Part shown: piece after piece, positions 22,191 through 53,968 of the stretch | Position numbering within the stretch: the first letter of the stretch is position 1 | How the letters are laid out: every line of letters begins with the position of its first letter | Source of the DNA: an uncultured Methanosarcinales archaeon | GTDB taxonomy: Archaea > Nanobdellota > Nanobdellia > Woesearchaeales > JABIAG01 | Length of the DNA: 64,000 nt | Direction of reading: 5' to 3' | Assembly (NCBI GenBank): GCA_964544335.1 | Contig: CAZJAJ010000001.1 | Span: forward strand, 29,199-93,198 | The notes under the pieces: model-generated | The model's database searches: none | Seen by the model: the letters and a program-made list of their open reading frames with translations, nothing else | What the model was told of the DNA's origin: nothing | Made by a program: the position numbers and the translations under genes

Positions 22191-23057
22191 TTAGTCAATT
22201 AACTTTTCTTCAAGAAATTTTCCCGACTGTTTTTTTAGAAAAGGAAAGTATAACATGGATTGGTAATGGCCACAGGGAAGATATGATGTTTCTGGTTGGT
22301 GAAGAGCTTTTCTAAAAAGTTCGGATTGCCTTGTTGGGACGGTTGTATCTTTTTCTGCAATTATCAAATATACAGATGTAGGGTCAATGTATGGTGCAAA
22401 ATCAATTGGATCAGGCGCAGTGAGTGTGTCAAGATCAATCTTTTTTCTTAGACGGCGCAATATTCCTTCCTCAGATGTTTCAAATATTTTTGGTATATCT
22501 CCACCCGTTAACATAAACACGTGTGCTGAACTCTCAACTCGTCCTGCAATGGTTGAACCAACAATACCACCAAGGCTAAAACCTACAATACCCAGCTTCC
22601 CTTTTTCATATGTTCTTAGCCAAGATGCGACATCACATCCTTCTTGATGAATAGTTGCTGCCCACTGTTCAAGTTCTGATTGCGTAAATGATTCTTCTAT
22701 TTCATCTGACTTTAATACGCATCCATTCATGCCATTTCTTGCATAGTGTTTTGCAAGAAGGTGCGCTAAGATATCGGGTCCTTTGAGCTGCGGGATTACA
22801 AGTACAGAGTTATTTTCCCCGTGTGCATTATACATCGTTATCTTTGAATTACCCAGTGTATATTTTTCAACAATATATGATGATTTTTTTGTAGTTGATA
22901 CGTGTGTTGGCTTTCGCATTGGAATATAGACTTCTTTTTGTAGTGGTTGTGGTTGATGTGTTGCTGCAGGAATAGTTGAAGGTGTTCTACAGCTTGTTGT
23001 AAGTAGCAGTGAAAGGCTAATGCAAGAGAGTAGTTTTTGGCTGCGCATGAAATCCAA
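22191..23057 (-). CDS. alpha/beta hydrolase, secreted or lipoprotein
   Basis: GFSLGG nucleophile elbow; N-terminal signal with Cys (LLLTTSC). Confidence 0.6.
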   Translation of the reverse strand: MDFMRSQKLLSCISLSLLLTTSCRTPSTIPAATHQPQPLQKEVYIPMRKPTHVSTTKKSSYIVEKYTLGNSKITMYNAHGENNSVLVIPQLKGPDILAHLLAKHYARNGMNGCVLKSDEIEESFTQSELEQWAATIHQEGCDVASWLRTYEKGKLGIVGFSLGGIVGSTIAGRVESSAHVFMLTGGDIPKIFETSEEGILRRLRKKIDLDTLTAPDPIDFAPYIDPTSVYLIIAEKDTTVPTRQSELFRKALHQPETSYLPCGHYQSMLYFPFLKKQSGKFLEEKLID

Positions 23058-24510
23058 GCTCCTTTACTTTTTTCTTTACACCCTTTGCAAGAAAATGCAT
23101 CGAGTCACCTTCATTAAGAACCGTACTATGTAGTGTAACTGATTCTGGACTAAGAGCACCTGCATCAATTTTTTTTCTAAGCCACTTAAGAAAATCAAGT
23201 CCATCATTTTTTGCCGTAAATCCACCACCCATAATACTTAAATCCATGTCTGTTAGAATTACTTCTGCTTGTGGTGCAAGGGACTTTGCTTGCGCAAGTG
23301 TTCCTGCTTGCAATACATGATATCCTTGCTGTTCATAGATTTTCACGAGTCTATCTCTGGTGTGTTTTTTATCTTCAACAATTAATGCAACGGGCTTTGT
23401 TGGTTGTTCTTGTTGTTGTTTTTCAGATAATTGTGCAAGATAATACGGAAGAAGGAAATCTATGCCAAAGTACTGTGCTTCACCAGAATTACCCAGATTT
23501 TCTCGTGCGTGAAAGGGATTTTTTTTCCATACATTATAGTGTGTCCCTCTTGCATACACGGGAAGTGGTTCTTTTACTTGATGCTTCCAACCATTCTTCA
23601 CCCACACCATCCGTTGTGTTCTGTGAAGTATTTCTCTGTTCGTATTAAGAAGAGGATATTCGTTGAGTATCTCTAAAGGATCTTGTGAAGGAATACCGTT
23701 GAGTTGTGCTATTGCTTCAAAAAGTGCATTATCTTCATCTGATTGTGTCACATAGTGACGTTCAAGTGCAATTTTGTATTCAGGAGAGGGATTAAAGTTC
23801 ATAAGTGCTCCAAGACGTATCATGAATAACCAATCACTGCTATGTGTTGGTACTTTAACAATGCCTGCATCAATTTCAAGGTTTCTTATTTTTTTAAGAT
23901 AATTTGCCCGAATGCATTCTTGAAGTAGAGCATCTGCTTCTTTAGAGGGTGCCATTTTTTTCAACCCTTCTGCAAGTACCAATGTATCAAGTACCCTACT
24001 ACGAGAGAGTTTCATTTTTGAAACACGAAGGTCGCTATGTGTTCCTGGAAGTTCAAGATCGTTCTCAAAAAGCATTGCACTAATTTCTGATGCATGTGCT
24101 TGTACATCTTCTCTTTCTTGCATAAAACTGTAGGCAAAAAGTAATTGAGAGAGTTTATTTGCAGAAAGAGCTTCAGCAGTAAGTGAACTAAATGTCTGCA
24201 CCATTTCAGCTATGCGTCGACTATCCTTTTCATTTGGATCAGTATGCTGTTTTACTGCAAGTGCTGCAAGATATTGCATGGTTGAGTCAATGTGTGCTTC
24301 ACCACGAGAGTTTTGTGGAACCATCCCTGCATCAAGTGGAACACGTTCTGAGAAATACTGTTCTTTGAAAGATAGATCATACGCTGCCTGTTCTTTTCTT
24401 AGAGCAATGTGCTCAAGAGAACTATCGTATCTATGTTGTTCAATAGAGCTACACCCTGCAACTAATAAGGATGCTACAGATGCGGCTATTGGTTTTACAA
24501 ATCTATTCAT
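23017..24510 (-). CDS. predicted lipoprotein with C-terminal response-regulator receiver (REC)-like domain
   Basis: Lipobox LLVAGCSS; C-terminal VALIVEDKK...ILTDMDL...HST...FLAKG has the REC DD/D/T/K spacing. Confidence 0.45.
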   Translation of the reverse strand: MNRFVKPIAASVASLLVAGCSSIEQHRYDSSLEHIALRKEQAAYDLSFKEQYFSERVPLDAGMVPQNSRGEAHIDSTMQYLAALAVKQHTDPNEKDSRRIAEMVQTFSSLTAEALSANKLSQLLFAYSFMQEREDVQAHASEISAMLFENDLELPGTHSDLRVSKMKLSRSRVLDTLVLAEGLKKMAPSKEADALLQECIRANYLKKIRNLEIDAGIVKVPTHSSDWLFMIRLGALMNFNPSPEYKIALERHYVTQSDEDNALFEAIAQLNGIPSQDPLEILNEYPLLNTNREILHRTQRMVWVKNGWKHQVKEPLPVYARGTHYNVWKKNPFHARENLGNSGEAQYFGIDFLLPYYLAQLSEKQQQEQPTKPVALIVEDKKHTRDRLVKIYEQQGYHVLQAGTLAQAKSLAPQAEVILTDMDLSIMGGGFTAKNDGLDFLKWLRKKIDAGALSPESVTLHSTVLNEGDSMHFLAKGVKKKVKELGFHAQPKTTLLH

Positions 24511-25245
24511 CTACTTTTTCTTTTTAGTTACCTTCTTTTTAGTTGTTTTCTTTTTGGTAGCTTTTTTAGTAGACTTTTTGGATGATTTTTTAGTGGTTTT
24601 TTTTGCAACTTTTTTCTTTGCAGGAGTTTTCTTAGTGGCTTTTTTCTTCGTTACTTTCTTCGTTACTTTTTTTGTTGATGTTTTAGATTTCTTAGCTGCT
24701 TTTTTTGTCACTTTGGTAGGTGCTACTTGTTCTTTCTCAAGTGCAACTGCTGCCTGAGCAGATCCATCCATGACAATAGTACCTTCAAGATCAGTATTCT
24801 CTCTGTTTTTTGCAGCAACATCAAATGCTGCCCGTAGTTTATCAAATGCTGCTTCTGTTGAAATTTTTTCTTCTTGTAGTGTTTTCATTTCTGGTTCGTA
24901 TTCAGCAGTAAATTCATAGGAACTTACACGCTTTACTGTACCTGCAAAAACACATACTATGAAGGAAATTACTTGGAGTACAATAAGCACGAATCGAGTA
25001 ATGGTTGCGCTTTGTACAAACAAGAAGAGCATGTAACTAATAGTAAAGGCAAAGATGATCATGGAAAGAATGTACCCTTCTTTTCTATCGTTGCCCACCA
25101 TGATGAGTGAGACCATTGCAAGAATGGAAAAGAGTGCAAAGATTACAAGGTCACTTGATGTGATCGCCTGTTCTAGTGTAGTGATCAACATATACACAAA
25201 TGAGAGTGCATAGGTAATAAATATAGTTAGGTATGCTCGATTCAT
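24511..25245 (-). CDS. membrane protein with Lys-rich histone-H1-like C-terminal tail
   Basis: Four TM helices then KKxTKK repeats over ~70 aa. Confidence 0.45.
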   Translation of the reverse strand: MNRAYLTIFITYALSFVYMLITTLEQAITSSDLVIFALFSILAMVSLIMVGNDRKEGYILSMIIFAFTISYMLFLFVQSATITRFVLIVLQVISFIVCVFAGTVKRVSSYEFTAEYEPEMKTLQEEKISTEAAFDKLRAAFDVAAKNRENTDLEGTIVMDGSAQAAVALEKEQVAPTKVTKKAAKKSKTSTKKVTKKVTKKKATKKTPAKKKVAKKTTKKSSKKSTKKATKKKTTKKKVTKKKK

Positions 25246-25277: not shown

Positions 25278-26240
25278 TTATGAGGCTCGAATATCATGCT
25301 TCCCATATGCTCCTGAATACTCAGGAATAGGCATATCTTTGATGTGTCGTTGTTGTAGTTGCGTAATGCAGTACCCGAGCTTTTCGCCAAAGTCAATTTT
25401 GGTTGTTGCTTGTGATGCCTGATGTAAGAGTTGCTGGCTGGTACACAAGGATTGATAGGTGAGTGGAACAAGTTTTGATATTCGTTCAAGATCATCTATC
25501 ACATACGTACCTACTTGATTAAGACGTTCAAGGCATTGTTTGTCAAGTTCTAATTGTATTAGGTCGTTTTGTGCACGGTTGTAGGACATTTTATGTCTTC
25601 CAACAGAGCATTGCAAACTTTCTCTTCTTGGGTGTTGACCTTCGTGCTGTATACGAAGGTCAGATAACTCAAGAAGTATTGCAAGAAACTGAGGCGATGT
25701 TTCATCTACGGCTACAAGTTGTTTTTCAATTTCTGCAATATGTGATTCAAGGTCAGGACTGTCTTGTTCTATTCGCCGTAATGAATCAAGTGCTTTTTGA
25801 TAGGATACTACTTCTTCTTTGAATGTGCGTTGCATGTCACTTGCACATCGATCGGTTCGTTGTATTTGATGACTTATGGTAGATAAATCTTGTTTAAGTA
25901 ATCCAATTTGATCTCGTATTACGGGTTCTACATTTGCAAGAACATCGTGAATACTTTTTGGAGAGGTATCTACATATGTTGCAAGACCAATTGATGCGAG
26001 TCCTTCATAACACATCTTTGAAAACCAATGCATACGTGGTTCTTTTATCGTGAATGTTTTGAGTAATTCTTTGTGCGGAATGTGTTGCCTTAGTGCATCA
26101 ACAACTCGTTGTGATCGATCTGCCATTGTTGATGAATAGATGGCAAGTGAGTTGGCACTACTGCTTCTTAATGCCAAACCACCATCTAGGCCTTTTGCAC
26201 CATACTGTTGTGATAAAAAATAATCAGATGTTTTTTTCAT
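25278..26240 (-). CDS. hypothetical coiled-coil protein
   Basis: ORF; 4-nt ATGA overlap with the upstream gene. Confidence 0.35.
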   Translation of the reverse strand: MKKTSDYFLSQQYGAKGLDGGLALRSSSANSLAIYSSTMADRSQRVVDALRQHIPHKELLKTFTIKEPRMHWFSKMCYEGLASIGLATYVDTSPKSIHDVLANVEPVIRDQIGLLKQDLSTISHQIQRTDRCASDMQRTFKEEVVSYQKALDSLRRIEQDSPDLESHIAEIEKQLVAVDETSPQFLAILLELSDLRIQHEGQHPRRESLQCSVGRHKMSYNRAQNDLIQLELDKQCLERLNQVGTYVIDDLERISKLVPLTYQSLCTSQQLLHQASQATTKIDFGEKLGYCITQLQQRHIKDMPIPEYSGAYGKHDIRAS

Positions 26241-39330: not shown

Positions 39331-39531
39331 CTAAACAGAGAAATAATCTTTCTCATTGATGTTTTTTGGTTTGACTTCTGCCTTGAAGTAGGTAATCATC
39401 TGTTTAATGGCTTCTTGTTTAGTTTTCAAATTATTGACTAATTTGTATATCTCAACAATTCTATCCTCTTCCGATGATAAATCAATTTGAATTTTAACCA
39501 TTATATATCGCCACGATATATGGAAATACAT
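39331..39531 (-). CDS. small hypothetical protein (66 aa)
   Basis: ORF; first gene of cassette 1. Confidence 0.3.
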   Translation of the reverse strand: MYFHISWRYIMVKIQIDLSSEEDRIVEIYKLVNNLKTKQEAIKQMITYFKAEVKPKNINEKDYFSV

Positions 39532-39556
39532 TGAAATATATAAATCTTTCTGATAA

Positions 39557-39758
39557 AAAAAGAAAAAAAGCGATCGTTACTTCGCTCCTTTTTGCCTACC
39601 ACACCCAAAGTATTCGCCTAAGGATGCTAGGTCTCGTTTCTGCTTAAAACGTCTAAAAGTCCAAAATTCCTTAATTTCAGACTTTTTACTCTTTGGTGGT
39701 TTAGTGACGCTTTTTTGAAAATCCGCCATAACTACTACACAATGACGAAAGATTTATA
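39557..39758. repeat. R2 copy a, ~202-bp non-coding repeat module
   Basis: ~96% identical to 41212-41414 (six substitutions, one 1-nt indel); ends in the GAAAGATTTATA core shared with the R1 start. Confidence 0.85.
39569..39594. terminator. hairpin plus T-run (agcga-tcgttactt-tcgct-cc-ttttt), bidirectional terminator-like element inside R2
   Basis: Perfect 5-bp stem; poly-T on the plus strand and poly-A upstream (T-run on the minus strand). Confidence 0.35.
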
Positions 39759-39965
39759 ATGGCTAATTATAGCTACCACTACGTTAAAACGGATAATTTC
39801 ACCTTTTTAACCAAAAAGCGATTTGGCGTCGTAATGACGCTTTCCTCGAATCCGTCATAAGCAGATGAATTTTCTGAAAAAAACAGAAAAAAGCGAGCGG
39901 AAACTTCAGATGACAGCGGAAAAGTCATTCTCAGGTTATGCTGTCAAAAGAAAGTGAATTAAGAA
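39747..39965. repeat. R1 copy b, 219-bp repeat module
   Basis: Identical to 37106-37324. Confidence 0.9.
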
Positions 39966-40004
39966 AATCTATTAATCGTTGAGAATTCAATTAATAATTT
40001 ACCT

Positions 40005-41174
40005 TCAATAAAAGAATCTTCCGTTAGGAGTAGCATTTGGAGTTGGCTCCTTGATTTTGTGAGCATATGCTTTTACAACATCTTCAAATTCTTTAAAATC
40101 AGTAGTTCTAAAATGTTGTAATGCTTCTTCTAAATCTCCTGTAATTACATAAGGTTCTCCTGTGAAAATAGAATTTTTACAATCTTGTTTTCTTCCCATA
40201 GATGTAAAGATAAAAGGAGCTTCTTCAAAGCCTGGAGCAGATGAAGTCCTATATTCGGCTACATTAACAGAACCACTTCCTCTGAACATTGGTTTTTGCA
40301 TATCAAATTTACTCATGTGCCCTAAAAAATTATTTGAAAAGTATAACATTGGCTTTGTAGATGTTGTGTATGTTCCTTGCATATACAATGAACCATCATC
40401 ATCATCTTTAGCAACACCTAATAGATAAACTTCCTCTTTTGATCCAACATAAACAAAATCTCCATGTTCTAAATCTTTAGTTGCTCTTGTCAACCAATCA
40501 TGTGCAACCCACATATTAAAACTACCATATGAAGGTTTTCTTGAATCACCGTTGCTTTTAAATCTATTAATCAATCCAGTGATCATGTTTCCTTTAGTAA
40601 CCCATTTAGGCATTTCTAAATCAGTACCTCTATTCTCAAGAAATGGAACTACATTTCTTTCGAAATATCCAGGTCTAGTAATCTCTTTTAATTTATCAAC
40701 CAATAAACTTTCATCAGCAATAACAGTTACACCATCAACTGTTTTTTCAACACGACCATCTCCAAATTTGTTTGCTAGAGTTAAATATAGGTCGGTGTGA
40801 CTTTCAGCAGAAGGCAGATACAAACCAAATTCCTGATCAAAATCAAAGTCAAGTCTGTGAGTTCCAAGAATTTCTATTCTTGCTTTAGCAGTAATTCTTT
40901 TTGAGGGATCTTTATGAGTATATGGATCGCCTTCTTGTGGCATCAATATATTCCCTATACACATTATGCTTGTATGTCTATTGGCTCGAACTCTCAATGG
41001 ATCGCTAGAACCAATTTCAGCACCTTCATATTTTAACAGAGAAACAGAATCTCCAAACTGAATCAATATATTTTGTCCTTTTTCTAGAGGTTCAACTACT
41101 TGTTTTACTGGAAGTAGCATATTATCTAAAGATTCAACTTCATTACTATTTGTAGTAGCTAATTGTTCCCCCAT
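40005..41174 (-). CDS. hypothetical protein (389 aa), sole gene of cassette 2
   Basis: Long ORF, no recognised motif. Confidence 0.4.
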   Translation of the reverse strand: MGEQLATTNSNEVESLDNMLLPVKQVVEPLEKGQNILIQFGDSVSLLKYEGAEIGSSDPLRVRANRHTSIMCIGNILMPQEGDPYTHKDPSKRITAKARIEILGTHRLDFDFDQEFGLYLPSAESHTDLYLTLANKFGDGRVEKTVDGVTVIADESLLVDKLKEITRPGYFERNVVPFLENRGTDLEMPKWVTKGNMITGLINRFKSNGDSRKPSYGSFNMWVAHDWLTRATKDLEHGDFVYVGSKEEVYLLGVAKDDDDGSLYMQGTYTTSTKPMLYFSNNFLGHMSKFDMQKPMFRGSGSVNVAEYRTSSAPGFEEAPFIFTSMGRKQDCKNSIFTGEPYVITGDLEEALQHFRTTDFKEFEDVVKAYAHKIKEPTPNATPNGRFFY

Positions 41175-41211
41175 AACTACTTGAAAATAGTATTTATATA
41201 TAAATTTAATT

Positions 41212-41414
41212 AAAAAGAAAAAAAGCGATCGTTACTTCGCTCCTTTTTGCCTGCAACACCCAAAGTATTCGCCTAAGGATGCTTAGGTCTCGTTTCTGCT
41301 TACAACGTCTAAAAGTCCAAAATTCCTTGATTTCAGACTTTTTACTCTTTGGTGGTTTAGTGACGCTTTTTTGAAAATCCGTCATAACTACTACACAATG
41401 ACGAAACATTTATA
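41212..41414. repeat. R2 copy b, ~203-bp repeat module
   Basis: See R2 copy a; ends with the core variant GAAACATTTATA. Confidence 0.85.
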
Positions 41415-42438
41415 TACTCACCCAGCTACACAGGCCATAATGACCGAAAAAAAAGAGTCAAAAATAGTAACATTTCTAGGAGCAGCAGCTCTTGCTACAT
41501 ACATTACAGGAGCACTGTATCACGCCATCAGATCAGAGCCAGATACAAAGCCTAGCAGAATTGAACATATTGTAGAAGAACCTAAAGAAAAAAAGGTAGA
41601 GAATATAGAGGTCTCAGTACCAAAAGCATACGAAGCAGTAAAACATCGTGTAGTTAATGGAAAGATTCCAGTTACAGTAAAGTATGGATATAACAAAGTT
41701 GACCTCCAAATCCCACTTGAAGAATATCTTCAATCAGTTGCTATTTCAACTGCCGAAGGTCCAATGAATGAACACTATGAACAAGTTATTCAGCACGTGT
41801 TTGCTAGTAACTACGATAGTCTTGATCCCCTAGTAAAAGAAATTAAGGGAAGATACTATAGGCGAGACGGATTCGAAGATGCCTCACGCATGTTCTTTAA
41901 TGGCAATAATATTAGATATGTGCTTGACCAAGACAATAGATACAATCAAGACGGTAAAAGAGTACTACGAATGGAACTTCCAAAAACACCTATTCAAACA
42001 CTTGTTGATGGTACTGGAGATTGTGAAGATTTCTCACTTGCACTAGGATATACTCTACACAGAACAGGAAAAGACGTATGTATTGCAACCATGTATAGAA
42101 CAGATGAGAATGGTGAAGTAAAGGGACATACAATCATGGGTCTTGAAGAAGATGCACTAGGTATTGAATACGATGAACTACTTGATCAACTCAATGCCAT
42201 TGGAAGCAATCGAGCAAGAACAAAGAGATATGTTAATTCACACGTTACTGCGCAAACAAGCGATGGACCAATTACCTACAGACTTATTGAACCACAGAGA
42301 GAAAATAAGAAGTGGGAAAGTGATACCATTGGCGACTATGTACTGCAAAGTATCTACATTCCAAAACGAAATGAATGGATAAGGGCAGACCACCTTACTC
42401 GAAAAGACGTTGTGAGTGAACACCGTAAAAACTATTAG
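41371..42438 (+). CDS. transglutaminase-like cysteine protease superfamily protein, membrane-anchored
   Basis: GTGDCEDFSLALGYTLHRTGKDVCIATMY matches the transglutaminase-like core (G.C..F......R..GIpaR); TM helix near the N-terminus. The likely start is the internal MTEKKES at about 41443, outside R2. Confidence 0.6.
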   Translation: MKIRHNYYTMTKHLYTHPATQAIMTEKKESKIVTFLGAAALATYITGALYHAIRSEPDTKPSRIEHIVEEPKEKKVENIEVSVPKAYEAVKHRVVNGKIPVTVKYGYNKVDLQIPLEEYLQSVAISTAEGPMNEHYEQVIQHVFASNYDSLDPLVKEIKGRYYRRDGFEDASRMFFNGNNIRYVLDQDNRYNQDGKRVLRMELPKTPIQTLVDGTGDCEDFSLALGYTLHRTGKDVCIATMYRTDENGEVKGHTIMGLEEDALGIEYDELLDQLNAIGSNRARTKRYVNSHVTAQTSDGPITYRLIEPQRENKKWESDTIGDYVLQSIYIPKRNEWIRADHLTRKDVVSEHRKNY

Positions 42439-42630
42439 ATTTTCTTTCATTTTCTCGTCGATAAAAAGACAGCATATAGAAAAGTATTTAAGCAAGTTCA
42501 TACACATTGCATACACCTGTTTAGCAGACGAAAAAGTCTGCAAGTGGTAAGACGAACAACTCGATCAACGTTTGCTAGGTAGGTAGATTATTCTCTTATG
42601 TTTAGAGCTCCATCATATATGTAGTAGACG

Positions 42631-42861
42631 TTGGTCTTGTACGGAGGCCTTAAATTGGCAGCAAAAAAAACAAGTAAAAAAGCGGTAAAGAAATCAACTA
42701 AAAAAGCAGTGAAGAAAGTTGCTAAAAAAGCAACCAAGAAAGCTGCAAAGAGCGTAGCTAAAAAACCTGCTAAAAAAGCAGTAAAGAAAACAGCAAAGGC
42801 AGCAGCACCTAAAAAGGCTGCTAAGAAAGCTGTAAAAAAGGCGAGCAAAAAGAAACGATGA
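42631..42861 (+). CDS. Lys/Ala-rich basic protein (histone H1 / AlgP-like KKAAKK repeats)
   Basis: 76 aa, about 45% Lys; repeats of KKAVKK/AKKAAK. Confidence 0.5.
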   Translation: MVLYGGLKLAAKKTSKKAVKKSTKKAVKKVAKKATKKAAKSVAKKPAKKAVKKTAKAAAPKKAAKKAVKKASKKKR

Positions 42862-42971
42862 GTGAAGCACTTTACTTTGAAGAAAAAATGATCGGCTTTG
42901 GAACATCCTATGACGACAGCGACGATGATGACGACTGGGATGATGACGATGACGACGACGATTACAATTAA
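42858..42971 (+). CDS. poly-Asp acidic micro-protein (37 aa), translationally coupled
   Basis: Manual translation MSEALYFEEKMIGFGTSYDDSDDDDDWDDDDDDDDYN; its ATG overlaps the stop of the basic protein (ATGA). Confidence 0.35.
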   Translation: MSEALYFEEKMIGFGTSYDDSDDDDDWDDDDDDDDYN

Positions 42972-43026
42972 GAAATAAGGAAGTAAACTAACGTACCTCC
43001 TTGGATCATTTTTTTATTTTTTTTCT

Positions 43027-43767
43027 TTATTGTCTTGGAATAATATATGCAACTTCTTTTCCAAGCACAGTACCTGGCACACGTACTTCATCTGGCACAT
43101 AACCATATTGTTCTAGTTGATCAAACATAGATCTTGCTGCAAACTCAGGATCTATTTCTGAGTACAGGTGTGCAAGTTTTCGAGCAGATTCAACTACTCT
43201 TCTTCTAGTAACATTACAGCAAGGATTAAAAATAAGGTTATCTAATTCGGATTGAATAACATCGCGTTTACCAACCACTTCAATTCCATCTTTTTCTATA
43301 CTTTGAATACCATATTTAGGATGATTAAAATTACATACATAGTCAACATATTGTTTCAGGTTTCCTTGTAGAGTAACTGGCCATCGTTCCCTTGAAGGTC
43401 CTTTCCAATCAAGATATCCTGCACACTTCATTTGCGGAATATATGAGGATAGTTGACTAAAATCTTCATTTACAACATACACTTTTGGAAAAATATCTTC
43501 TAGCTCCTGTAAATCAGGGTGTCGCCACACGCCTTCCCCAGTATGACAGAGAGTAACTCTATCCGTAATAAAACGAGTGAAATGATCAAGTGTAATACGA
43601 GCTCTCACATCATCGGTTTTTTCTTCTTCGCGATCGATATACACTCGAGCAAAATCTCCACGCATATTATTTTCAGGATCATGTAACTCGCTTTCACAAA
43701 TATAACTCATTTGAGTTTTTTTTCCAATACGACAATGATGTAAAAGTACAGTAAATGAAGGGAACAT
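43027..43767 (-). CDS. hypothetical protein, paralog A of a tandem pair
   Basis: Shares the FPKVYVVNEDF...KGPS block with 43813-44505. Confidence 0.35.
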   Translation of the reverse strand: MFPSFTVLLHHCRIGKKTQMSYICESELHDPENNMRGDFARVYIDREEEKTDDVRARITLDHFTRFITDRVTLCHTGEGVWRHPDLQELEDIFPKVYVVNEDFSQLSSYIPQMKCAGYLDWKGPSRERWPVTLQGNLKQYVDYVCNFNHPKYGIQSIEKDGIEVVGKRDVIQSELDNLIFNPCCNVTRRRVVESARKLAHLYSEIDPEFAARSMFDQLEQYGYVPDEVRVPGTVLGKEVAYIIPRQ

Positions 43768-43812
43768 AGCGTGCTGAAAACAAGATGGTATTTAAAAAAT
43801 TAATGGAGAAGA

Positions 43813-44505
43813 TTATTCCATCCAATACGCAAGTTCTTTTTCAATACCAATGGTGCCTTTTTTAGGAACTTCTTTGAGGGTAAATCCCATGTGTTCGAGT
43901 TTTGATTGTACTTGGTGTTCAATACCATCAAGGCATTGCCCTGCACCTTTTTTTATTGACTCATCAGCAATAAGTTCAGGAGTAATATTACTTGTTAAAT
44001 TTGATGTTACTGACTTATACACATGCTCTGCAACAATGTCTGAAAAGACTTCATCAGGAAGGAACATCCCCATATACTGCTCATACTTTTCTACTGAAAG
44101 CCAGTGAGTAAACTCACCTATAAAACACTCAGTCCCGGTTACAGGGCTTGGGCCAGACCAAGTATTTTTCCCATAGGCATTTATTTTTGAAGGTGCATTA
44201 AAAAGATACACATTATTATCAACATTAGAAACAAATACTTTAGGAAAGAGGCGTAATAGATCATTATCATCAGCAGAGCGATACTGAACCGCATCTGCAG
44301 AAAATGCACGTGGAACCATAGCACACTGTTTTGCAAAATAGGTAAAACGACCCATGATAAATCCTAATGGATTGTCATAAAAGAACTTTTCAGGAACACG
44401 ATTTCTAAAGATAAGTAATGGAGTTTTCCTGGCATCATATGCCATTACCGATACCACATCATCTAGCACATGACAATCCAATAATACGCCGTTTTCTTCA
44501 TCCAT
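43813..44505 (-). CDS. hypothetical protein, paralog B of a tandem pair
   Basis: LFPKVFVSNVDN...WSGPSPVTG is similar to the neighbouring gene. Confidence 0.35.
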   Translation of the reverse strand: MDEENGVLLDCHVLDDVVSVMAYDARKTPLLIFRNRVPEKFFYDNPLGFIMGRFTYFAKQCAMVPRAFSADAVQYRSADDNDLLRLFPKVFVSNVDNNVYLFNAPSKINAYGKNTWSGPSPVTGTECFIGEFTHWLSVEKYEQYMGMFLPDEVFSDIVAEHVYKSVTSNLTSNITPELIADESIKKGAGQCLDGIEHQVQSKLEHMGFTLKEVPKKGTIGIEKELAYWME

Positions 44506-44854
44506 GAGGTGATGTGTAAGGGTCGTATTTTATATAGATTTGTGATTAAGAAGTGATTCCATACAAGTAGTAAGAACTACGTATTTTAAAACACCAGAGG
44601 AAATAGAAAAATCGCGGGATAAAAAAATTGCTTATTTGCTTGCACTTCTTGGATTAATATTTTTCACAGTACCAAAAGCAATGCTAGAACTAAGAACGCC
44701 TTGGAATGAATAAAAGATTACTTTGTATTATTAGAAAATCAATTTAACACCGATCGATTTAGGCCTTTTCTCCGAAACCTTTATAAAGAAGTGCATCCCA
44801 ACTCATCTTAGTTGATCTTAAGTCAACCAAAAACAATCAAAAAGGTGTACAAAA

Positions 44855-45376
44855 ATGGTCGATAAAAACGAACAATTACAAGAAGAACAAAAGAATGACG
44901 TGCTAGAAGAAGCACTTGATAACGCAAAAAGACAAGCAGAACACAACACCGATGACAAAGTCAAAGAACTCACCTCTACTATACAACACCTCCAAGCTGA
45001 CTTTGAGAACTATCGGAAACGAACAGAAAAAGAGCGAGTAGAACTCAAAAGTCTCTTCAAAAAAGACTTTCTCAAAAATATGCTCCCTACGTTAGATATG
45101 TTTGATCTTGCACTACAGCATAAAAGCAACCATGAAGAATTCCTTAAGGGAGTTGAAATGATTTACGCTCAATTTCTAGGAACACTAGAAAGCGAAGGCG
45201 TTGAAGAAATTAAAGACACAGAAAACTTCAACCCAAGCAAACACGAAGCTGTACTTACCGATGATGGTGAGGATGGCAAGATCCTAGAAGTATTACAAAA
45301 AGGCTACACGCTCAATGGTGAAGTTATCCGATGCACCAGAGTTAAAGTAGGTAAACAACCAAAGGAGACGCAATAA
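44855..45376 (+). CDS. grpE: nucleotide exchange factor GrpE
   Basis: [15 protein letters not shown]... core GrpE motifs; upstream of dnaK. Confidence 0.9.
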
Positions 45377-45377
45377 A

Positions 45378-47207
45378 ATGGCAGAACAAGGAAAAGCAAT
45401 TGGAATTGATTTAGGTACAACGTTTTCTGCAGTTGCAGTAATCGAAGGTGGTAAACCAACCATTATACCTAATGCAGAAGGAGATAGAACAACACCATCA
45501 GTAGTACTTATCAAAGACGGAGAGAGAACCGTTGGTAAGCACGCACGAAATCAGGCAGTAATGAATCCTGAACATACCATTAGATCCATTAAACGATTGA
45601 TGGGTACTGATGAAAAAGTAAACATTGATGGAAAAGACTACTCACCACAAGAAGTATCAGCAACTATTCTACAAAAACTCAAAGCAGATGCTGAAAGCTA
45701 CCTTGGAAGAAAAGTTACTGATGCAGTCATTACCGTTCCAGCATACTTTAATGATGCTGAACGTCAAGCAACAAAAGATGCTGGGAAAATTGCAGGTCTA
45801 AATGTACTTAGAATTGTAAACGAACCAACCGCAGCATCTTTAGCATACGGGCTTGACAAATCACAAGACCACACCGCACTTGTATTTGATTTTGGTGGAG
45901 GTACGTTTGATGTATCTGTACTAGAACTTGGCGATGGCGTCTTTGAAGTAAAATCTACTGCAGGAGATAATAGACTTGGTGGAGATGATGTTGACCAAGT
46001 AATTATTGACAAACTCGCAGAAGACTTCAAGAAAGAACAAAATATTGATCTTAGATCTGATAAGCAAGCACTACAGCGACTTAAAGAAGCTGCAGAAAAA
46101 GCAAAAATTGAACTGAGTTCAAAACCAACAACTGATGTAAACCTTCCGTTCATCACCTCCGATGCAAACGGTCCAAAACACCTTACTCGAACCATTAAAC
46201 GAGCTGAGTTTGATCAATGGATTCAAACAATCCTTGACAAGCTCAAAGGACCAACACAGCAAGCAATCAAAGATGCTGGCGATGTAAAAATTGACAAAGT
46301 AATCCTGGTAGGTGGTTCAACACGAATCCCTGCAGTACAAGACATTGTTAAGAAGATTACTGGCATTGACCCTGACAAATCCGTTAACCCTGATGAGGCA
46401 GTAGCACTTGGTGCTGCAGTACAAGCAGGTATTCTTGGCGGAGAAGTAAAGGATGTATTGCTTCTTGATGTTACACCTCTAAGCCTTGGTATTGAAACAC
46501 TCGGTGGTGTTTTTACCAAATTAATTGAGCGAAACACCACCATTCCTACCAAGAAGTCTCAGATCTTCTCTACTGCAGCAGACAATCAACCTGCAGTAAC
46601 AGTTCGAGTCTTCCAAGGGGAACGATCCATGGCAGCAGACAATAAACTGCTTGGTCAATTTGATCTTGAAGGTATTCCACCAGCACCACGAGGTGTTCCA
46701 CAAATTGAGGTGACATTTGATATCGATGCAAATGGTATCGTAAATGTTAAAGCAGTGGACAAAGGAACCAATAAAGAGCAAAAGATCACCGTGACCGGTT
46801 CTAGTAACCTAAGCGATGATGAGATCAAGAAGATGCAGGAAGCTGCAGAACAACACGCTGAAGAGGATAAGAAAAAAGCAGAAGAAGTAATCCTCTACAA
46901 TGAAGTGGATAACTTGATCTATCAGTCTGAGAAGATGAAAGATGAGTACAAGGATAAACTTGATAAAGCTCAGCTTGAAGAACTCGATAAAGAACTTGAG
47001 GAAATCAAGAAACTTCGTGACGAAAAGAATACAGACGCACTTAAAGCAAAGATGGACGAATTAAACAAAAAGGTCCAAGAGATGGGCGCGGCTATGTATA
47101 AACAGCAAGCAGAAGCTGCTGCTCAAAATCCTGATGAAAAGAAGGATGATGGCGTTGTTGATGCTGAAGTGGTTAACGAAGAGAAGACTGACGATAAAAA
47201 AGAATGA
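45378..47207 (+). CDS. dnaK: molecular chaperone DnaK (Hsp70)
   Basis: [34 protein letters not shown] and EEVD-like acidic tail. Confidence 0.97.
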
Positions 47208-47360
47208 ATGAAGCAATAACTATTGCTGCTCTTCTTCTTATTTTTCTTTTTGTAAGAAGAGTTGTTAAGAATTCGATGATCTCTGCAAAAAAAACGCGAA
47301 TCATCAAAGATGAATTACTTGACATAGTGAACAATCCAAAGTACAAAGTGAGGGGCAAGT

Positions 47361-48431
47361 ATGAGTAAGGACTATTACAAGATTCTTGGTGTTGAAAAAA
47401 ACGCATCTAAAGAAGAGATTAAGAAAGCATACAAGAAACTTGCAAAAAAATACCACCCTGATTTAAACAAAGACGACCCAGAAGCCGAAGCAAAGTTCAA
47501 GGAAGCATCAGAGGCTGCTGCAGTACTTGGCGATGAGCAAAAGAGGCAACATTACGATCAATTTGGCACCGCAGATAATCCTTTTGGCGGTGGACAAGGC
47601 GGTCAAGGGTTTTCTGGATTTGAAGATATCTTCGGAGACATTTTCTCTGGTTTTGGCGGATTTGGTGGAAGAGGTAATCGACGGCCAACACGAGGAAACG
47701 ATCTACAGTACGAATTATCAATTACGCTCGAAGAAGCATACAAGGGCGTTGAAAAACAAATTAAAATTCCTAAATACGATACTTGCAAAGCATGTTCTGG
47801 TTCTGGTGCAAAGTCACCTGATGCAGTAGATACCTGTGGTACATGTCATGGACAAGGTGTGGTGAATAGACAAACACGAACACCGTTTGGTGTGTTTAAT
47901 ATGCAATCCACCTGTCCTTCCTGTAAGGGAGATGGAAAAACAATTACTGATCCGTGTATGGAGTGTCATGCAAGCGGTAGAGTTGAAGTAACCAAAAATA
48001 TCAAAGTTAAAATTCCAGCAGGTGTGCACACCCGTTCACAACTACGTGTTGCAGGCGAAGGAGAGGCAGGAGAACATGGCGTACCACCTGGCGATTTGTA
48101 TGTATTTATCCACGTAGAACAACACGATGTATTTACACGAAAGAATGATGACATCATAATCAAACATCAAATTCCATTTTCCATGGCAGCACTTGGCGGA
48201 GAAATTGATGTGCCAACACTTGATGGCAAAGCAACACTCAAAGTACCTGCAGGGACCACTGCTGGAACTATTCTAAGAATGAAAGGACGAGGTATCCCAC
48301 ACCTTGGCAGGTCATCATCTGGTGATTTACATGTGGTGATTGACATCCAAGTACCTAAGAAAGTGTCCAAAAAAGCACGAAAGCTCCTTGAAGATCTTGA
48401 CAAAGAGATTGAGAAGAAGGGCTGGTTCTAA
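47361..48431 (+). CDS. dnaJ: molecular chaperone DnaJ (Hsp40)
   Basis: J domain with HPD (KKYHPDLNK), G/F-rich region, four CxxCxGxG repeats. Confidence 0.95.
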
Positions 48432-49783: not shown

Positions 49784-51823
49784 ATGTGCGGCATTATTGG
49801 CATTTTCAATAGTAAGAACGTTAGGAAGCAATTAGCTACTGCTCTTGAGGTGATGCAAGCACGAGGACAAGATGCATCCAAGGTTTACACAAAGGGATCA
49901 TGTGGTATTGGACATAACTTACATGCCATTGTCAATTACACACCACAGCCGCTTGATAATAGACTTGTTACGAATTGTGAAATATACAATTGGGAAGCAC
50001 TCAATAAGAAACACAACCTTAATGCAAAAAATGATGCAGATGCACTACTCAAGATCCTTGAAAAGAAAGGAACAAAAGGACTTGATGAAGCCGATGGAGT
50101 GTATGCACTCTGCTTATGGGATAAGGATACTGTAATTCTTGCACGAGATGTTCTTGGAGTAAAGCCATTATGGTATACACATAGCGATGTGTTTGCGTGT
50201 GCATCTGAAAAGAAGGCACTTGAAGCAGCAGGCTTTCTTGACATTCATGAATTAAACCCAAGAATGATTTTGACCTACAACGTCAAAACAAATGAGATCA
50301 CACTCAAAGAACGATCCTTCTTTACACTTGAAAAGACACACAAAGATAAAAAGAAAACAAAAGAGCTTCTTGAAGCTGCGATCAAAAAGAGAATTCCAAA
50401 AGGACAAAAAATTGGACTCTTATTTTCAGGCGGTGTTGATTCTACGTACATTGCAACGATTCTAAAAAATATGAACATTCCATTTACCTGCTACACGGCA
50501 GGAATCAAAGAAGAAGGGATGAAAGAAGCAGATGATGTGGTGTATGCAAAAAAAGCTGCAGAATTACTTGATCTTCATCTCAAAATTTCATCAATCCCCA
50601 TTAGCAAAGTGCCAACGTATCTAAAAACCATTGTTCCACTCATTGAAGATTCTAATGTGGTAAAGGTTGGTGTTGCACTGCCGTTTTATGTGGCATGTGA
50701 AGAGGCAAAAAAAGATGGTGTGCGGGTGATGTTTTCCGGCCTTGGCTCTGAAGAAATATTTGCGGGGTATGAGCGGCACATCAAATCATCAGACATTAAT
50801 GAAGAGTGTTTATTTGGATTAAAACAAATGTATCAACGAGATCTGTATCGGGACGATGTGCTTACGATGCACCACTCTATTGAACTACGATTGCCATTTC
50901 TTGACAAGGCACTCGTGCAAACTGCACTTAATCTTGATCCAAAATTAAAAATCACCAAAGAAAATAATAAAGCAATTCTTAGAACCATTGCACAAGAAGC
51001 AGGAACTCCAGAGATTATTGCACAACGAAAAAAGAAAGCGGCGCAGTATGGGTCTAAGTTTGATAAGGCGCTTGCAAAGCTGGCAAAGAAAAAAGGACTC
51101 ACCAAATCTGCGTATCTGCGAACCTTCTACCCAAAAGCAAATTTGCGTGTGGGTGCACTGTTTTCATCAGGAAAGGATTCAACGTATGCACTCTATATTA
51201 TGCAGAAGATGAATTATGAAGTTTCATGTTTAATTACACTTGAGTCTAAGAACTCATCTAGTTACATGTTCCACACACCAAATATTGAACTTACCAAATT
51301 ACAATCACAAGCACTTGGCATTCCACGCATGGTGCAAACAACAGAAGGAAAAAAGGAAGAAGAGCTTGCAGATCTTGAAGCTGCTATTAGAGAAGCAAAA
51401 AAGAAGTATAAGCTGGATGCTATTGTGACGGGTGCTATTTTTTCAACATACCAGAGAAATAGGATTGAAACTATTTGTGACAAGTTAGGATTAAGTGTCT
51501 TTGCACCGTTGTGGCATAAAAACCAGGAAGAGGAAATGCGAGAACTTATTTCTGCTGGGTTTGAAGTGATGCTCTCATCCATTGCTGCATATGGACTTAC
51601 AAAAGAGTGGCTTGGAAAGGTACTTACACTCAACGATGTGGACAAACTTGCACAACTTGAGAAAAAATACAAGATCAATGTTGCAGGCGAGGGAGGAGAA
51701 TTTGAATCCCTGGTCATCAACGGACCTAATTTTTCAAAGAAAATAGACATTACCAAATCAAAGGTAGTGATGGAAGATGAAAATACAGGAAATTTCATCA
51801 TAGAGGAGGCACAGTTAGTATGA
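49784..51823 (+). CDS. asnB: asparagine synthetase (glutamine-hydrolysing) fused to a C-terminal DUF71/MJ0570 (Dph6-like) PP-loop ATPase domain
   Basis: N-terminal MCGIIGIF (Ntn amidotransferase); SGGVDS PP-loop; second PP-loop domain ALFSSGKDSTYALYIM...AIVTGAIFSTYQRNRIE resembling diphthine-ammonia ligase/MJ0570. Confidence 0.75.
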   Translation: MCGIIGIFNSKNVRKQLATALEVMQARGQDASKVYTKGSCGIGHNLHAIVNYTPQPLDNRLVTNCEIYNWEALNKKHNLNAKNDADALLKILEKKGTKGLDEADGVYALCLWDKDTVILARDVLGVKPLWYTHSDVFACASEKKALEAAGFLDIHELNPRMILTYNVKTNEITLKERSFFTLEKTHKDKKKTKELLEAAIKKRIPKGQKIGLLFSGGVDSTYIATILKNMNIPFTCYTAGIKEEGMKEADDVVYAKKAAELLDLHLKISSIPISKVPTYLKTIVPLIEDSNVVKVGVALPFYVACEEAKKDGVRVMFSGLGSEEIFAGYERHIKSSDINEECLFGLKQMYQRDLYRDDVLTMHHSIELRLPFLDKALVQTALNLDPKLKITKENNKAILRTIAQEAGTPEIIAQRKKKAAQYGSKFDKALAKLAKKKGLTKSAYLRTFYPKANLRVGALFSSGKDSTYALYIMQKMNYEVSCLITLESKNSSSYMFHTPNIELTKLQSQALGIPRMVQTTEGKKEEELADLEAAIREAKKKYKLDAIVTGAIFSTYQRNRIETICDKLGLSVFAPLWHKNQEEEMRELISAGFEVMLSSIAAYGLTKEWLGKVLTLNDVDKLAQLEKKYKINVAGEGGEFESLVINGPNFSKKIDITKSKVVMEDENTGNFIIEEAQLV

Positions 51824-52043: not shown

Positions 52044-52532
52044 ATGCGAAGGCTCAATTTATATCAAACAATAGATATTCTTTCACGAAATGGTTTTGAC
52101 CATAGTGATGTAGGACAAATATATGTAGCTGGTGTAGATGCTGCACACGATAGTTTTCTTTCAAAAAAATGTCCACACGGATTTGAATCAGGCGATTCAC
52201 TACTTCGAAGAACAGCACGAGAATTTCAAAGAAATGTGAGAGGGTACTTTTACGAGGTTAGAACTCAATGTGTTATTAAGAAAAAAGAACGAGCAGAAAT
52301 CATACTATCTATTCCAGAAATATTCCCCTTCATTACTGAATCAGATGATGAAGTGTTTATTGAAGGTACACTAAGAGATTTGCTTTCTGAAAATAATCCT
52401 GAAGTTATGGAATGTATTGGTTGTCGGATTACTGAGGGTGCAAAAGAATATGCTGATGTAACAAGAAGAACGGATCACTATATTAGAGAATATGAAGCTA
52501 TTCATAATGCATTACGGAAGGAACAACAATGA
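52044..52532 (+). CDS. hypothetical protein
   Basis: ORF; ATGA overlap with the downstream PhoH2 gene. Confidence 0.3.
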   Translation: MRRLNLYQTIDILSRNGFDHSDVGQIYVAGVDAAHDSFLSKKCPHGFESGDSLLRRTAREFQRNVRGYFYEVRTQCVIKKKERAEIILSIPEIFPFITESDDEVFIEGTLRDLLSENNPEVMECIGCRITEGAKEYADVTRRTDHYIREYEAIHNALRKEQQ

Positions 52533-53968
52533 CCACTTTTGAGAAGGAGCAATATTTTGTTCCAGATACAAATATTTTTCTTTCAGACCCTACTGCAATA
52601 GATCAATTTAAACCACAGGATAAGAATATAAGAAATACAGTTGTACTTCCGATGCAAGTTATTGCAGAAATTGATGAGAAGAAAAATGAAAGCCACAGTG
52701 ATCGAGGATTTGCTGCACGAGAAACATTAAGACTTCTTAAAGAAAGAATAAGAGAATCGGGATCTAATTTACTTCAAGGAGTTGATTTAGAACCAAATTA
52801 CAGAATAATTGCTTCTACAAACCTTTCACAAGGAACAGATGTAATAGATGCACACGATAACACGCCAGATAGTAGAATCATACAAGTCGTCAGTGATTTG
52901 CAAAGAGCGGGACATAAAACAACTTTTGTAACCAATGATACTGGTGCATATGTTATTGCAAATGCACTAGGTCTTCACACTGAATCATGGAGAGAAAAAG
53001 AAGTAGAAGCTACTGTAGAACCCTACAAAGGTTGGAGAGCATTAGAAATTGATCCTAATTTATTCTTTGATAAAGTACACCACAATCGTGGAGAAGTTGA
53101 AGTAAAACATCTTCCTATGGACGGATTAGAAGGACTACTTCCTAATGAGTTCGTTATTTTCACAGGAAATAGAGTTGAAACAACAGCACTACGGCACATA
53201 GATGGAAGACTTCACCGACTTTATCACTATGAAGGGAGACAATCTAAAGTAAAAGCAAAAAATGTACTTCAACAATGTTACATGGATGTGCTAAGAGATG
53301 AAGATATTGATGTGGTATTTTGTATGGGTGAGGCAGGAACAGCTAAAACATACCTTGCTACAGATGCTGCAATTGAACTCTGTTTTACTGATGAAGTTGC
53401 ACGAAATGCAGGTAAAAGACCAATTGCACACCATACCGGAGATGAATTAAGAGAATTTGCTAAACTACTTATCACAAGACCTGCTGTAAATGAAAATAAT
53501 AGAGATGTAGTAGATCTTGGTGCAATTCCTGGTGACCTCACAGATAAAATGATGCCGTGGGTTGCACCCATTTATGATCAAATTGAACAACTTGCGGAAA
53601 CATATAAGATTGATGCTGATATGATTGAGGATTTAAAAAAAGAAGGGCTACTTGAAATTCTTGTTACTACTCATATGCGTGGTAGAAGTCTTACAAATGC
53701 ATATTGGGTCTTAGACGAAGGACAAAATACATCTTTTTTCCAGCTAAGAACTGCAATGACACGTGTTGGTGAAGGGACAAAAATGGTTCTTACTGGAGAT
53801 CCAAAACAATGTGATCTTAAAGGAATTGCTGATCGCAAAAATAATAGTCTTGTTATTGCAAACGAACGATGGAAATCATACAAAGGTGCAGCAACCATAT
53901 ACTTCCAAGGAAGTGAGTATGTTGTACGTTCAAGACTTGCACAAGAAGCAGTTAATCGTATGCAATAA
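52529..53968 (+). CDS. PhoH2: PIN-domain plus PhoH-like ATPase
   Basis: N-terminal PIN (FVPDTNIFL...VVLPMQVIAEID) and Walker A FCMGEAGTAKTYLA. Confidence 0.8.
   Translation: MTTFEKEQYFVPDTNIFLSDPTAIDQFKPQDKNIRNTVVLPMQVIAEIDEKKNESHSDRGFAARETLRLLKERIRESGSNLLQGVDLEPNYRIIASTNLSQGTDVIDAHDNTPDSRIIQVVSDLQRAGHKTTFVTNDTGAYVIANALGLHTESWREKEVEATVEPYKGWRALEIDPNLFFDKVHHNRGEVEVKHLPMDGLEGLLPNEFVIFTGNRVETTALRHIDGRLHRLYHYEGRQSKVKAKNVLQQCYMDVLRDEDIDVVFCMGEAGTAKTYLATDAAIELCFTDEVARNAGKRPIAHHTGDELREFAKLLITRPAVNENNRDVVDLGAIPGDLTDKMMPWVAPIYDQIEQLAETYKIDADMIEDLKKEGLLEILVTTHMRGRSLTNAYWVLDEGQNTSFFQLRTAMTRVGEGTKMVLTGDPKQCDLKGIADRKNNSLVIANERWKSYKGAATIYFQGSEYVVRSRLAQEAVNRMQ

Follow-up and report, generated by a model that had tools for sequence, protein, structure and literature searches.

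The 64,000-nucleotide (nt) stretch of contig CAZJAJ010000001.1 analysed here (hereafter the window, to whose positions all coordinates refer) carries on its plus strand two small overlapping open reading frames (ORFs) whose predicted products are of opposite charge. The first (42655..42861) encodes a polycation rich in lysine and alanine and the second (42858..42971) an aspartate-rich peptide of 37 amino acids (aa), and the two are joined by an ATGA stop/start overlap. Codon usage is coding-like in both frames, and the pair has recognisable unit boundaries. The feature is anatomically coherent and real, while the acidic micro-protein and a neutralising role for it are plausible but unproven. 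We tentatively favour the reading, short of an even chance, that the locus would specify a disordered polycation together with a translationally coupled, charge-neutralising polyanionic micro-protein, analogous to the eukaryotic pair of histone H1 and prothymosin-alpha. The window is of archaeal origin and has genes for GatD, for a diphthamide-synthase domain and for an S-layer outer domain; its GC content is 37%, and it contains one tRNA.

Two overlapping frames of opposite charge

The maximal basic frame (42631..42861, +) is open over 76 codons from a TTG, and three independent gene calls on the same DNA give products of 76, 74 and 68 aa. Because a Shine-Dalgarno-like GGAGG (42644..42648, +) sits 6 nt before the TTG at 42655, and because one of the three gene calls agrees, this start is favoured and the product is most likely 68 aa long. 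GGAGG at equal spacing precedes other genes of the window, at 26240, 39319 and 62042, all on the minus strand. The 68-aa form contains 31 Lys, 19 Ala, two Pro and one Arg with no Asp or Glu, giving a net charge of +32 and an isoelectric point of 11.9. The whole of it (MAAKKTSKKAVKK...KKASKKKR) is repeat sequence, with Lys-Lys recurring every four residues in a strict (KKxx)n period, and Tandem Repeats Finder (TRF) reports periods of 12, 24, 36 and 48 nt. Codon log-odds, which compare in-frame with out-of-frame usage and were trained on the longer genes of the window, reach +36 bits in the frame itself versus -2 to -79 in the remaining five frames, and the choice of Ala and Lys codons is genome-like (GCA over GCT, AAA over AAG). 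We regard the basic gene as very probably genuine.

The acidic micro-ORF (42858..42971, +), which was called as a gene in three assemblies, encodes MSEALYFEEKMIGFGTSYDDSDDDDDWDDDDDDDDYN, with a net charge of -17. Its N-terminal half is aromatic and hydrophobic and is followed by an Asp-rich tail in which 15 of the 20 C-terminal residues are Asp and the longest unbroken run is eight. The original prediction had described a 76-aa protein of KKAxKK repeats followed by a 37-aa ORF ending in about 20 consecutive Asp residues. Both ORFs and the ATGA overlap are present where it placed them, the basic frame does measure 76 aa at its maximum, and the length and quoted string of the acidic peptide were correct; however, the GGAGG and one gene call point to a 68-aa basic product, and the Asp tract is interrupted. 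At the nucleotide level this tract is an imperfect (GAY)n repeat (42912..42962, +) of 15 Asp codons broken by Ser and Trp, for which TRF gives a period of 3, 16.7 copies and 68% matches. Nine of the Asp codons are GAC and six GAT, and the resulting 60% GAC differs from the genome-wide 24% (p = 0.003) and comes nearer to the 43% of the highly expressed S-layer gene. Such an excess fits high expression or an origin as a (GAC)n repeat alike. The 15 GAY codons differ at the third position alone and all differences are synonymous, a test that is both weak and circular. A structured RNA in the GAY region was considered and rejected, there being no Rfam match and no folding better than that of shuffled sequences.

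The non-repetitive part of the acidic ORF can be scored separately. Its 18 N-terminal codons score +9.0 bits in their own frame versus -3 to -26 in the others, which places them at the 67th percentile among true-frame segments taken out of real genes. The same score is matched by 0.4% of stop-free wrong-frame windows within genes and by 6.5% of stop-free unannotated or intergenic windows. The intrinsic coding evidence for the N-terminus is thus moderate, and we give the acidic ORF an even chance of being translated. An AlphaFold model of the peptide is without secondary structure, at low confidence (predicted local distance difference test score, pLDDT, of 61).

The overlap itself (42858..42861, +) is of the -4 nt type, with the TGA stop codon of the basic ORF shared with the ATG of the acidic one. 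TGA, which an ATGA overlap needs, is the rarest stop codon in the window (10 of 57). ATGA overlaps as such are normal for this genome. One further example occurs in the window, at 52529-52532, where a 162-aa ORF precedes that of a PIN-PhoH fusion protein in the only other pair of this kind (52044-53968, +). The DNA of the basic and acidic ORFs is 100% identical across three separate Logan assemblies from different runs (SRR15635848, SRR15635857 and SRR15635858), so the offset between the two frames is not an error of a single assembly. On the strength of these three identical assemblies, a single gene split by an assembly frameshift or a homopolymer indel was rejected.

Signals at either side suggest a single transcript. 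A TATA-like element, TCATATATG (42611..42619, +), is a candidate archaeal promoter for the bicistron, and its position would place the transcription start near 42642, just 5' of the GGAGG. Most first-in-operon genes of the window have TTTATA-type boxes 28-31 nt 5' of the start codon, a sign of leaderless mRNAs; in a minority of genes, GGAGG(T) stands 6-8 nt before the start instead. No run of five or more T residues lies between the two ORFs, and the first such run 3' of the basic ORF is at 43009. A hairpin with a 9 bp stem and an 8 nt loop (42977..43002) lies between the convergent units, 6 nt past the acidic stop codon, and has a terminator-like score on the minus strand. It is followed by the oligo-T run T7 A T8 C T3 (43009..43028, +), a candidate archaeal-type termination signal for the bicistron, and the convergent 246-aa gene ends at 43027. 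As such, the acidic ORF fills the gap from the basic stop codon to the shared terminator of the convergent units to within 6 nt, and the space 3' of the basic ORF is either a second cistron or a 150-nt 3' untranslated region (UTR) in an otherwise compact genome. These features agree with the claim of one transcript in the original prediction, and the two ORFs look like one compact transcription unit.

The pairing was set against chance expectation in a scan of 2.36 Mb, comprising both strands of the window and of 160 fetched loci. Exactly one ORF of 25-200 aa in this sample has at least 40% Asp plus Glu, and it is the acidic ORF described here. This lone strongly acidic small ORF adjoins the most extreme basic and most Lys-rich ORF of the whole scan. 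The probability that a single acidic ORF would adjoin any of the 131 basic ORFs found, most of which are spurious frames, is about 0.01 by post hoc estimate, and the pairing exceeds chance expectation to that extent.

Resemblance to known polycations and polyanions

Neither ORF has a match in Pfam, NCBIfam, PHROGs, PADLOC, PDB or Rfam. The basic product had been called histone-H1-like, a term that fits its composition and four-residue periodicity but does not denote family membership: its likeness to the Lys/Ala(/Pro)-rich tail of H1/H5 is one of composition. However, a linker-histone globular domain is lacking, with no Linker_histone match (H1/H5 winged-helix domain, PF00538) in the basic ORF in a Pfam scan at E <= 10. 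The models of chlamydial Hc1 and HC2 (PF07432 and PF07382) gave no match for the basic ORF in full Pfam-A at E <= 10 or in NCBIfam.

In bacteria, the Lys/Ala-rich period-4 repeats of AlgP/PhaF are a module that binds DNA and polyphosphate granules and resembles the C-terminal tail of H1 (PMC9239181), and similar Lys-rich tails modulate DNA binding by mycobacterial Ku (PMC3553676). The basic product shares with AlgP/PhaF (KPAA repeats), Mycobacterium HupB/Ku (PAKKA tails) and Chlamydia Hc1/Hc2 the low-complexity period-4 Lys repeats, the predicted disorder and the very high positive charge; these known proteins bind DNA. The four-residue (12-nt) period of AlgP/PhaF is present in the basic ORF, but as KKxx rather than KPAA, so that each repeat carries two Lys and twice the charge density of KPAA. 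Unlike these proteins, the basic product is nearly devoid of Pro, has no folded N-terminal domain and belongs to an archaeal host, and for none of them has a polyanionic peptide encoded alongside been reported.

Disordered proteins of opposite charge associate, driven by charge and with no folding, into complexes that are extremely tight yet dynamic (PMC7661507, PMC10576128), and prothymosin-alpha chaperones H1 on and off chromatin and competes it off nucleic acid (PMC7661507, PMC10576128, bioRxiv 10.1101/2020.04.17.046243). The likeness between the C-terminal domain of H1 with prothymosin-alpha and the pair described here consists in a Lys/Ala-rich disordered polycation accompanied by a disordered polyanion; the charges here are +32 versus -17, and the acidic peptide is predicted, at the low confidence already given, to be unstructured. 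The differences are considerable. The archaeal polycation has no winged-helix globular domain, the partners measure 68 and 37 aa versus about 200 and 110 aa, the acidic residues are Asp where those of prothymosin-alpha are mostly Glu, and the genes form an overlapping archaeal bicistron. There is no sequence homology between the two systems.

Acidic blockers of nucleoid proteins have been described in bacteria and phages, namely DMP12 and DMP19 of Neisseria, Gp46 of phage SPO1 and MsyB of E. coli, and Gp44 of SPO1, with a disordered segment that is 57% Asp/Glu, follows the same logic (PMC3643605, PMC5722371, PMC8892312, PMC8208478, bioRxiv 10.1101/2025.02.25.640118). The common principle is an acidic protein that takes up the surface by which an abundant basic protein binds DNA. 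Most of these mimics and antagonists are folded and at least 100 aa long, whereas the candidate here is a 37-aa peptide whose ORF overlaps that of its presumed target. Searches with Pfam, NCBIfam, PHROGs, PADLOC and PDB found no relatedness to DMP12, DMP19, Gp46, MsyB or Gp44. In the known cases, the genes of these antagonists lie apart from those of their targets or belong to phages.

The genetic arrangement has its own precedents. Experiments in archaea have shown that overlaps of -4 nt couple termination tightly to reinitiation, and pairs joined in this way preferentially link subunits of heteromeric complexes (PMC6728339, PMC10666635). Like the ATGA-coupled pairs known from archaea, the two ORFs are co-directional, share the exact ATGA, have no terminator between them and lack a strong Shine-Dalgarno sequence for the downstream gene. 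What sets this putatively coupled pair apart is a second cistron of unusual shortness and low sequence complexity.

Under the favoured reading of a coupled polycation and polyanion, the first cistron would yield the 68-aa intrinsically disordered (KKxx)n polycation with its net charge of +32, which may bind nucleic acid or another cellular polyanion non-specifically in the manner of the Lys/Ala-rich tails of histone H1, AlgP/PhaF and HupB. Ribosomes terminating at the TGA of the ATGA would reinitiate on the overlapping ATG and translate the second cistron into the 37-aa micro-protein, whose Asp tail (net -17) could then combine with the polycation into a disordered polyelectrolyte complex. Coupled synthesis would deliver the polyanion where and when the polycation is made. 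There it might buffer the indiscriminate binding of the polycation to RNA, ribosomes or DNA, or else modulate its release, in the way that prothymosin-alpha acts on H1, and the aromatic N-terminal half (Tyr, Phe and Met, with a Trp inside the Asp tract) might add specificity or self-association. Translation of the second cistron, an interaction of the products and any cellular target are what we infer here, and a chaperone or antagonist function is suggested by charge alone. If both products are made, we think it probable that they interact functionally. The more specific proposition, that the locus might be an archaeal minimal counterpart of H1/prothymosin-alpha in which a 68-aa polycation is born with its own polyanionic chaperone or antagonist from overlapping cistrons, is an analogy that we regard as rather doubtful.

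Were both peptides made and bound to each other, they would constitute the smallest natural polyelectrolyte pair known, and one that is genetically coupled. It would follow that prokaryotes too handle a sticky polycation that condenses DNA or RNA by co-producing a disordered polyanion, a logic on record until now for H1 and prothymosin-alpha of eukaryotes and, in a loose sense only, for folded DNA mimics of HU. Among prokaryotes we found no earlier description of a pair of disordered polycationic and polyanionic peptides that is hard-wired genetically. Such a pair would also offer a tractable, all-synthetic-peptide system for charge-driven disordered complexes, and an example of low-complexity ORFan genes gaining function. 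If the acidic ORF is untranslated, the locus is ordinary, a further instance of a low-complexity basic protein rich in Lys and Ala from a genome that is AT-rich.

Alternative readings of the locus

Several results weigh against a coupled polycation and polyanion. An open frame of 37 codons is not rare (P ~0.14 per frame), slippage can generate GAY repeats, and no Shine-Dalgarno sequence of its own precedes the ATG of the acidic ORF. The restriction of variation in the Asp tract to third positions is statistically weak, and in the antisense poly-Ser frame this variation is just as synonymous; nor are the charges of the two products 1:1. Homology searches add to this. The acidic ORF, padded to 41 aa to reach the minimum of 40 aa, retrieved only itself among 5.8 billion proteins, while the basic ORF had words in common with 8000 candidates, none of them significant, probably owing to composition correction. 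The 355-aa upstream neighbour likewise found only itself in a billion-scale protein search, both flanking genes being ORFans, and no such pair occurs in the 22 kb obtained of a related marine metagenome contig that is syntenic only from grpE on (see below). No homologous locus of the pair was found in any collection searched. For low-complexity products of 37 and 68 aa a lack of homologues is not evidence against function; the hypothesis rests on a single genome.

About as likely as the favoured reading is that only the basic gene is functional, and that the acidic ORF is an accidental open frame which a (GAY)n repeat has left in a 3' UTR of about 150 nt, with the ATGA a coincidence of the ...CGA TGA end of the basic ORF. 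In favour of this, the acidic ORF lacks homologues of any form among the 5.8 billion proteins, its Asp tract is a period-3 repeat by TRF, and its Asp codons are atypical in the manner to be expected of a GAC-derived repeat (the 60% versus 24% given above). The absent Shine-Dalgarno sequence, the 6.5% of stop-free intergenic windows that reach its N-terminal coding score and its position in an island of ORFans, where low-complexity sequence could drift freely, speak for an accidental frame as well. Yet an accident would not readily explain why the non-repetitive half codes best in precisely its own frame and poorly in the other five, nor why the ORF spans the distance from stop codon to terminator hairpin within 6 nt. 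The overlap moreover arises through TGA, the rarest stop codon, and the sole strongly acidic ORF in 2.36 Mb adjoins the strongest polycation, at a chance of about 0.01. We consider it unlikely that both products are made but act independently, the polycation organising DNA, RNA or polyphosphate and the Asp-rich peptide binding divalent cations or some other basic partner, with co-transcription reflecting no more than common regulation. The evidence of translation is the same for independent products as for interacting ones, and the unmatched net charges (+32 versus -17) would suit them. So would the association of AlgP-type Lys-rich repeats with polyphosphate granules as well as DNA (PMC9239181), and the other Lys-rich tail in the window, that of the membrane protein at 24511-25245, has no acidic partner beside it. 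However, genes joined by a -4 overlap typically encode subunits of one complex (PMC10666635), and peptides so oppositely charged would associate in vitro almost unavoidably (PMC7661507).

That neither ORF is a gene is very improbable. The locus would then be low-complexity repeat DNA in a fast-evolving ORFan island, or the real product would be that of the other strand, on which a Phe/Ala/Leu-rich frame stays open over both ORFs from about 43016 down to 42588. Consistent with this are the lack of homologues and family matches, the tandem-repeat nature of both ORFs and the length of the antisense frame, which is itself a by-product of the AAA/GCN and GAY codons. The basic sense frame nevertheless scores +36 bits, against -2 to -79 for the antisense frames; the hydrophobic antisense ORF (-2 bits) has no start codon before a TTG at 42848 and no pairing of a Shine-Dalgarno sequence with a start codon, and was rejected as a gene. 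The Shine-Dalgarno, promoter-like and terminator signals all fit the plus strand, and Lys/Ala-rich basic proteins are a well-known type. There is, lastly, only the slightest likelihood of a programmed -1 frameshift at the heptamer A_AAA_AAG (42834..42840, +), which would produce a 105-aa fusion of the polycationic body with an auto-inhibitory poly-Asp tail, HMGB1-like and with a net charge of +10. The heptamer fits the X_XXY_YYZ pattern in the correct phase of the basic frame and lies 9 nt past the last stop codon of the -1 frame. This frame is open from 42825, so that a slip would run straight into the acidic ORF, with a -1 continuation of 43 codons up to the stop codon of that ORF. A_AAA_AAG is the slippery site of dnaX, and -1 frameshifting at A_AAA_AAT has reportedly been observed in fucA1 of the archaeon Saccharolobus solfataricus. 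Downstream, however, there is no hairpin or pseudoknot that could stimulate a slip, the RNA at 42841-42910 folding no better than shuffled sequences (z = +0.30). With 13 Lys-Lys dicodons the heptamer is expected by chance, and a fusion would have no use for the separate ATG that the acidic frame carries right at the stop codon.

The ORFan island and other features of the window

The pair lies in a 5.4-kb island (39400-44800) of six ORFs of 389, 355, 68, 37, 246 and 230 aa. It is flanked on one side by a housekeeping block with AsnC, a methyltransferase, SufE, LigT, NUDIX and LemA and on the other by grpE-dnaK-dnaJ. No homologue was found for the five island ORFs searched, four against billion-scale protein sets and the 389-aa ORF against IMG/VR and the profile libraries only, and all six are without a match in Pfam, NCBIfam, PHROGs and PADLOC except for a weak LapG-like NCBIfam match of the 355-aa ORF. 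Among 1.84 billion representatives, the 246-aa downstream neighbour of the pair matched nothing but itself and the paralogue in tandem with it; the two paralogues, of 246 and 230 aa, are 29% identical. No relatives were found of the two neighbours of the pair in metagenome contigs, or of these and the 389-aa ORFan in IMG/VR. A prophage or defence island was considered and rejected, as PHROGs, PADLOC and IMG/VR gave no signal. For the 246-aa neighbour, AlphaFold gave no usable model (pLDDT 36).

GrpE was of no use as a synteny anchor, its matches in the GTDB (185,000 species genomes) being at most 47% identical and mostly from Bacillota. A metagenome search with DnaK gave one good relative, the marine metagenome contig mentioned above (L084, UOXV01000292.1; DnaK 89% identical). 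The two are collinear over the part of the window that begins with grpE (44918) and extends at least as far as 56334, and their proteins there share 44-89% identity. This collinearity stops exactly upstream of grpE, and the 9.4 kb of the contig upstream of that point are without a match in the window. The ORFan island coincides with this synteny break, and the pair sits in a lineage-specific island whose turnover is probably fast.

The ORFan directly upstream of the pair (41371-42438, +) has a weak match to a LapG/transglutaminase-like cysteine protease (NCBIfam NF045674, E = 9e-5) over residues 186-233, around GDCEDFS. The NCBI call for this ORF is 332 aa, and the start of the longest ORF (355 aa) falls within a duplicated unit of about 203 nt. 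The two copies of the unit (39557-39758 and 41212-41414) are 97% identical and flank the 389-aa ORFan on both sides. On the minus strand the first copy ends in the hairpin AGCGAAGTAACGATCGCT followed by a T-run, read at 39557-39590, and both copies carry a small Lys-rich ORF (MADFQKSVTKPPKSKKSEIKEFW...). The unit has no Rfam match and a fold z-score of -1.7; it could be a duplicated small gene or small RNA, or a scar left by a local duplication from which the island arose.

Downstream of the island, the grpE-dnaK-dnaJ operon (44855-48431, +) is found in an archaeal genome, and the nearest GrpE sequences are mostly those of Bacillota, at 40-47% identity. Archaeal Hsp70 systems are of bacterial origin, and the affinities of this GrpE are consistent with that. 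Further on, a 679-aa ORF (49784-51823, +) fuses a glutamine-amidotransferase/asparagine-synthase module to a diphthamide-synthase domain (PF01902), and the fusion is kept in the marine contig at 80% identity.

The original prediction had also pointed to a Lys-rich tail on the membrane protein at 24511-25245 (-), and such a tail is present. The protein has several N-terminal transmembrane helices and ends in a Lys/Thr-rich C-terminal tail of about 70 aa with the pattern KKxTKK; Lys-rich low-complexity tails therefore recur in this genome. The stop codon of the membrane-protein gene directly abuts the ATG of a gene for a 497-aa lipoprotein-like product (23017-24510).

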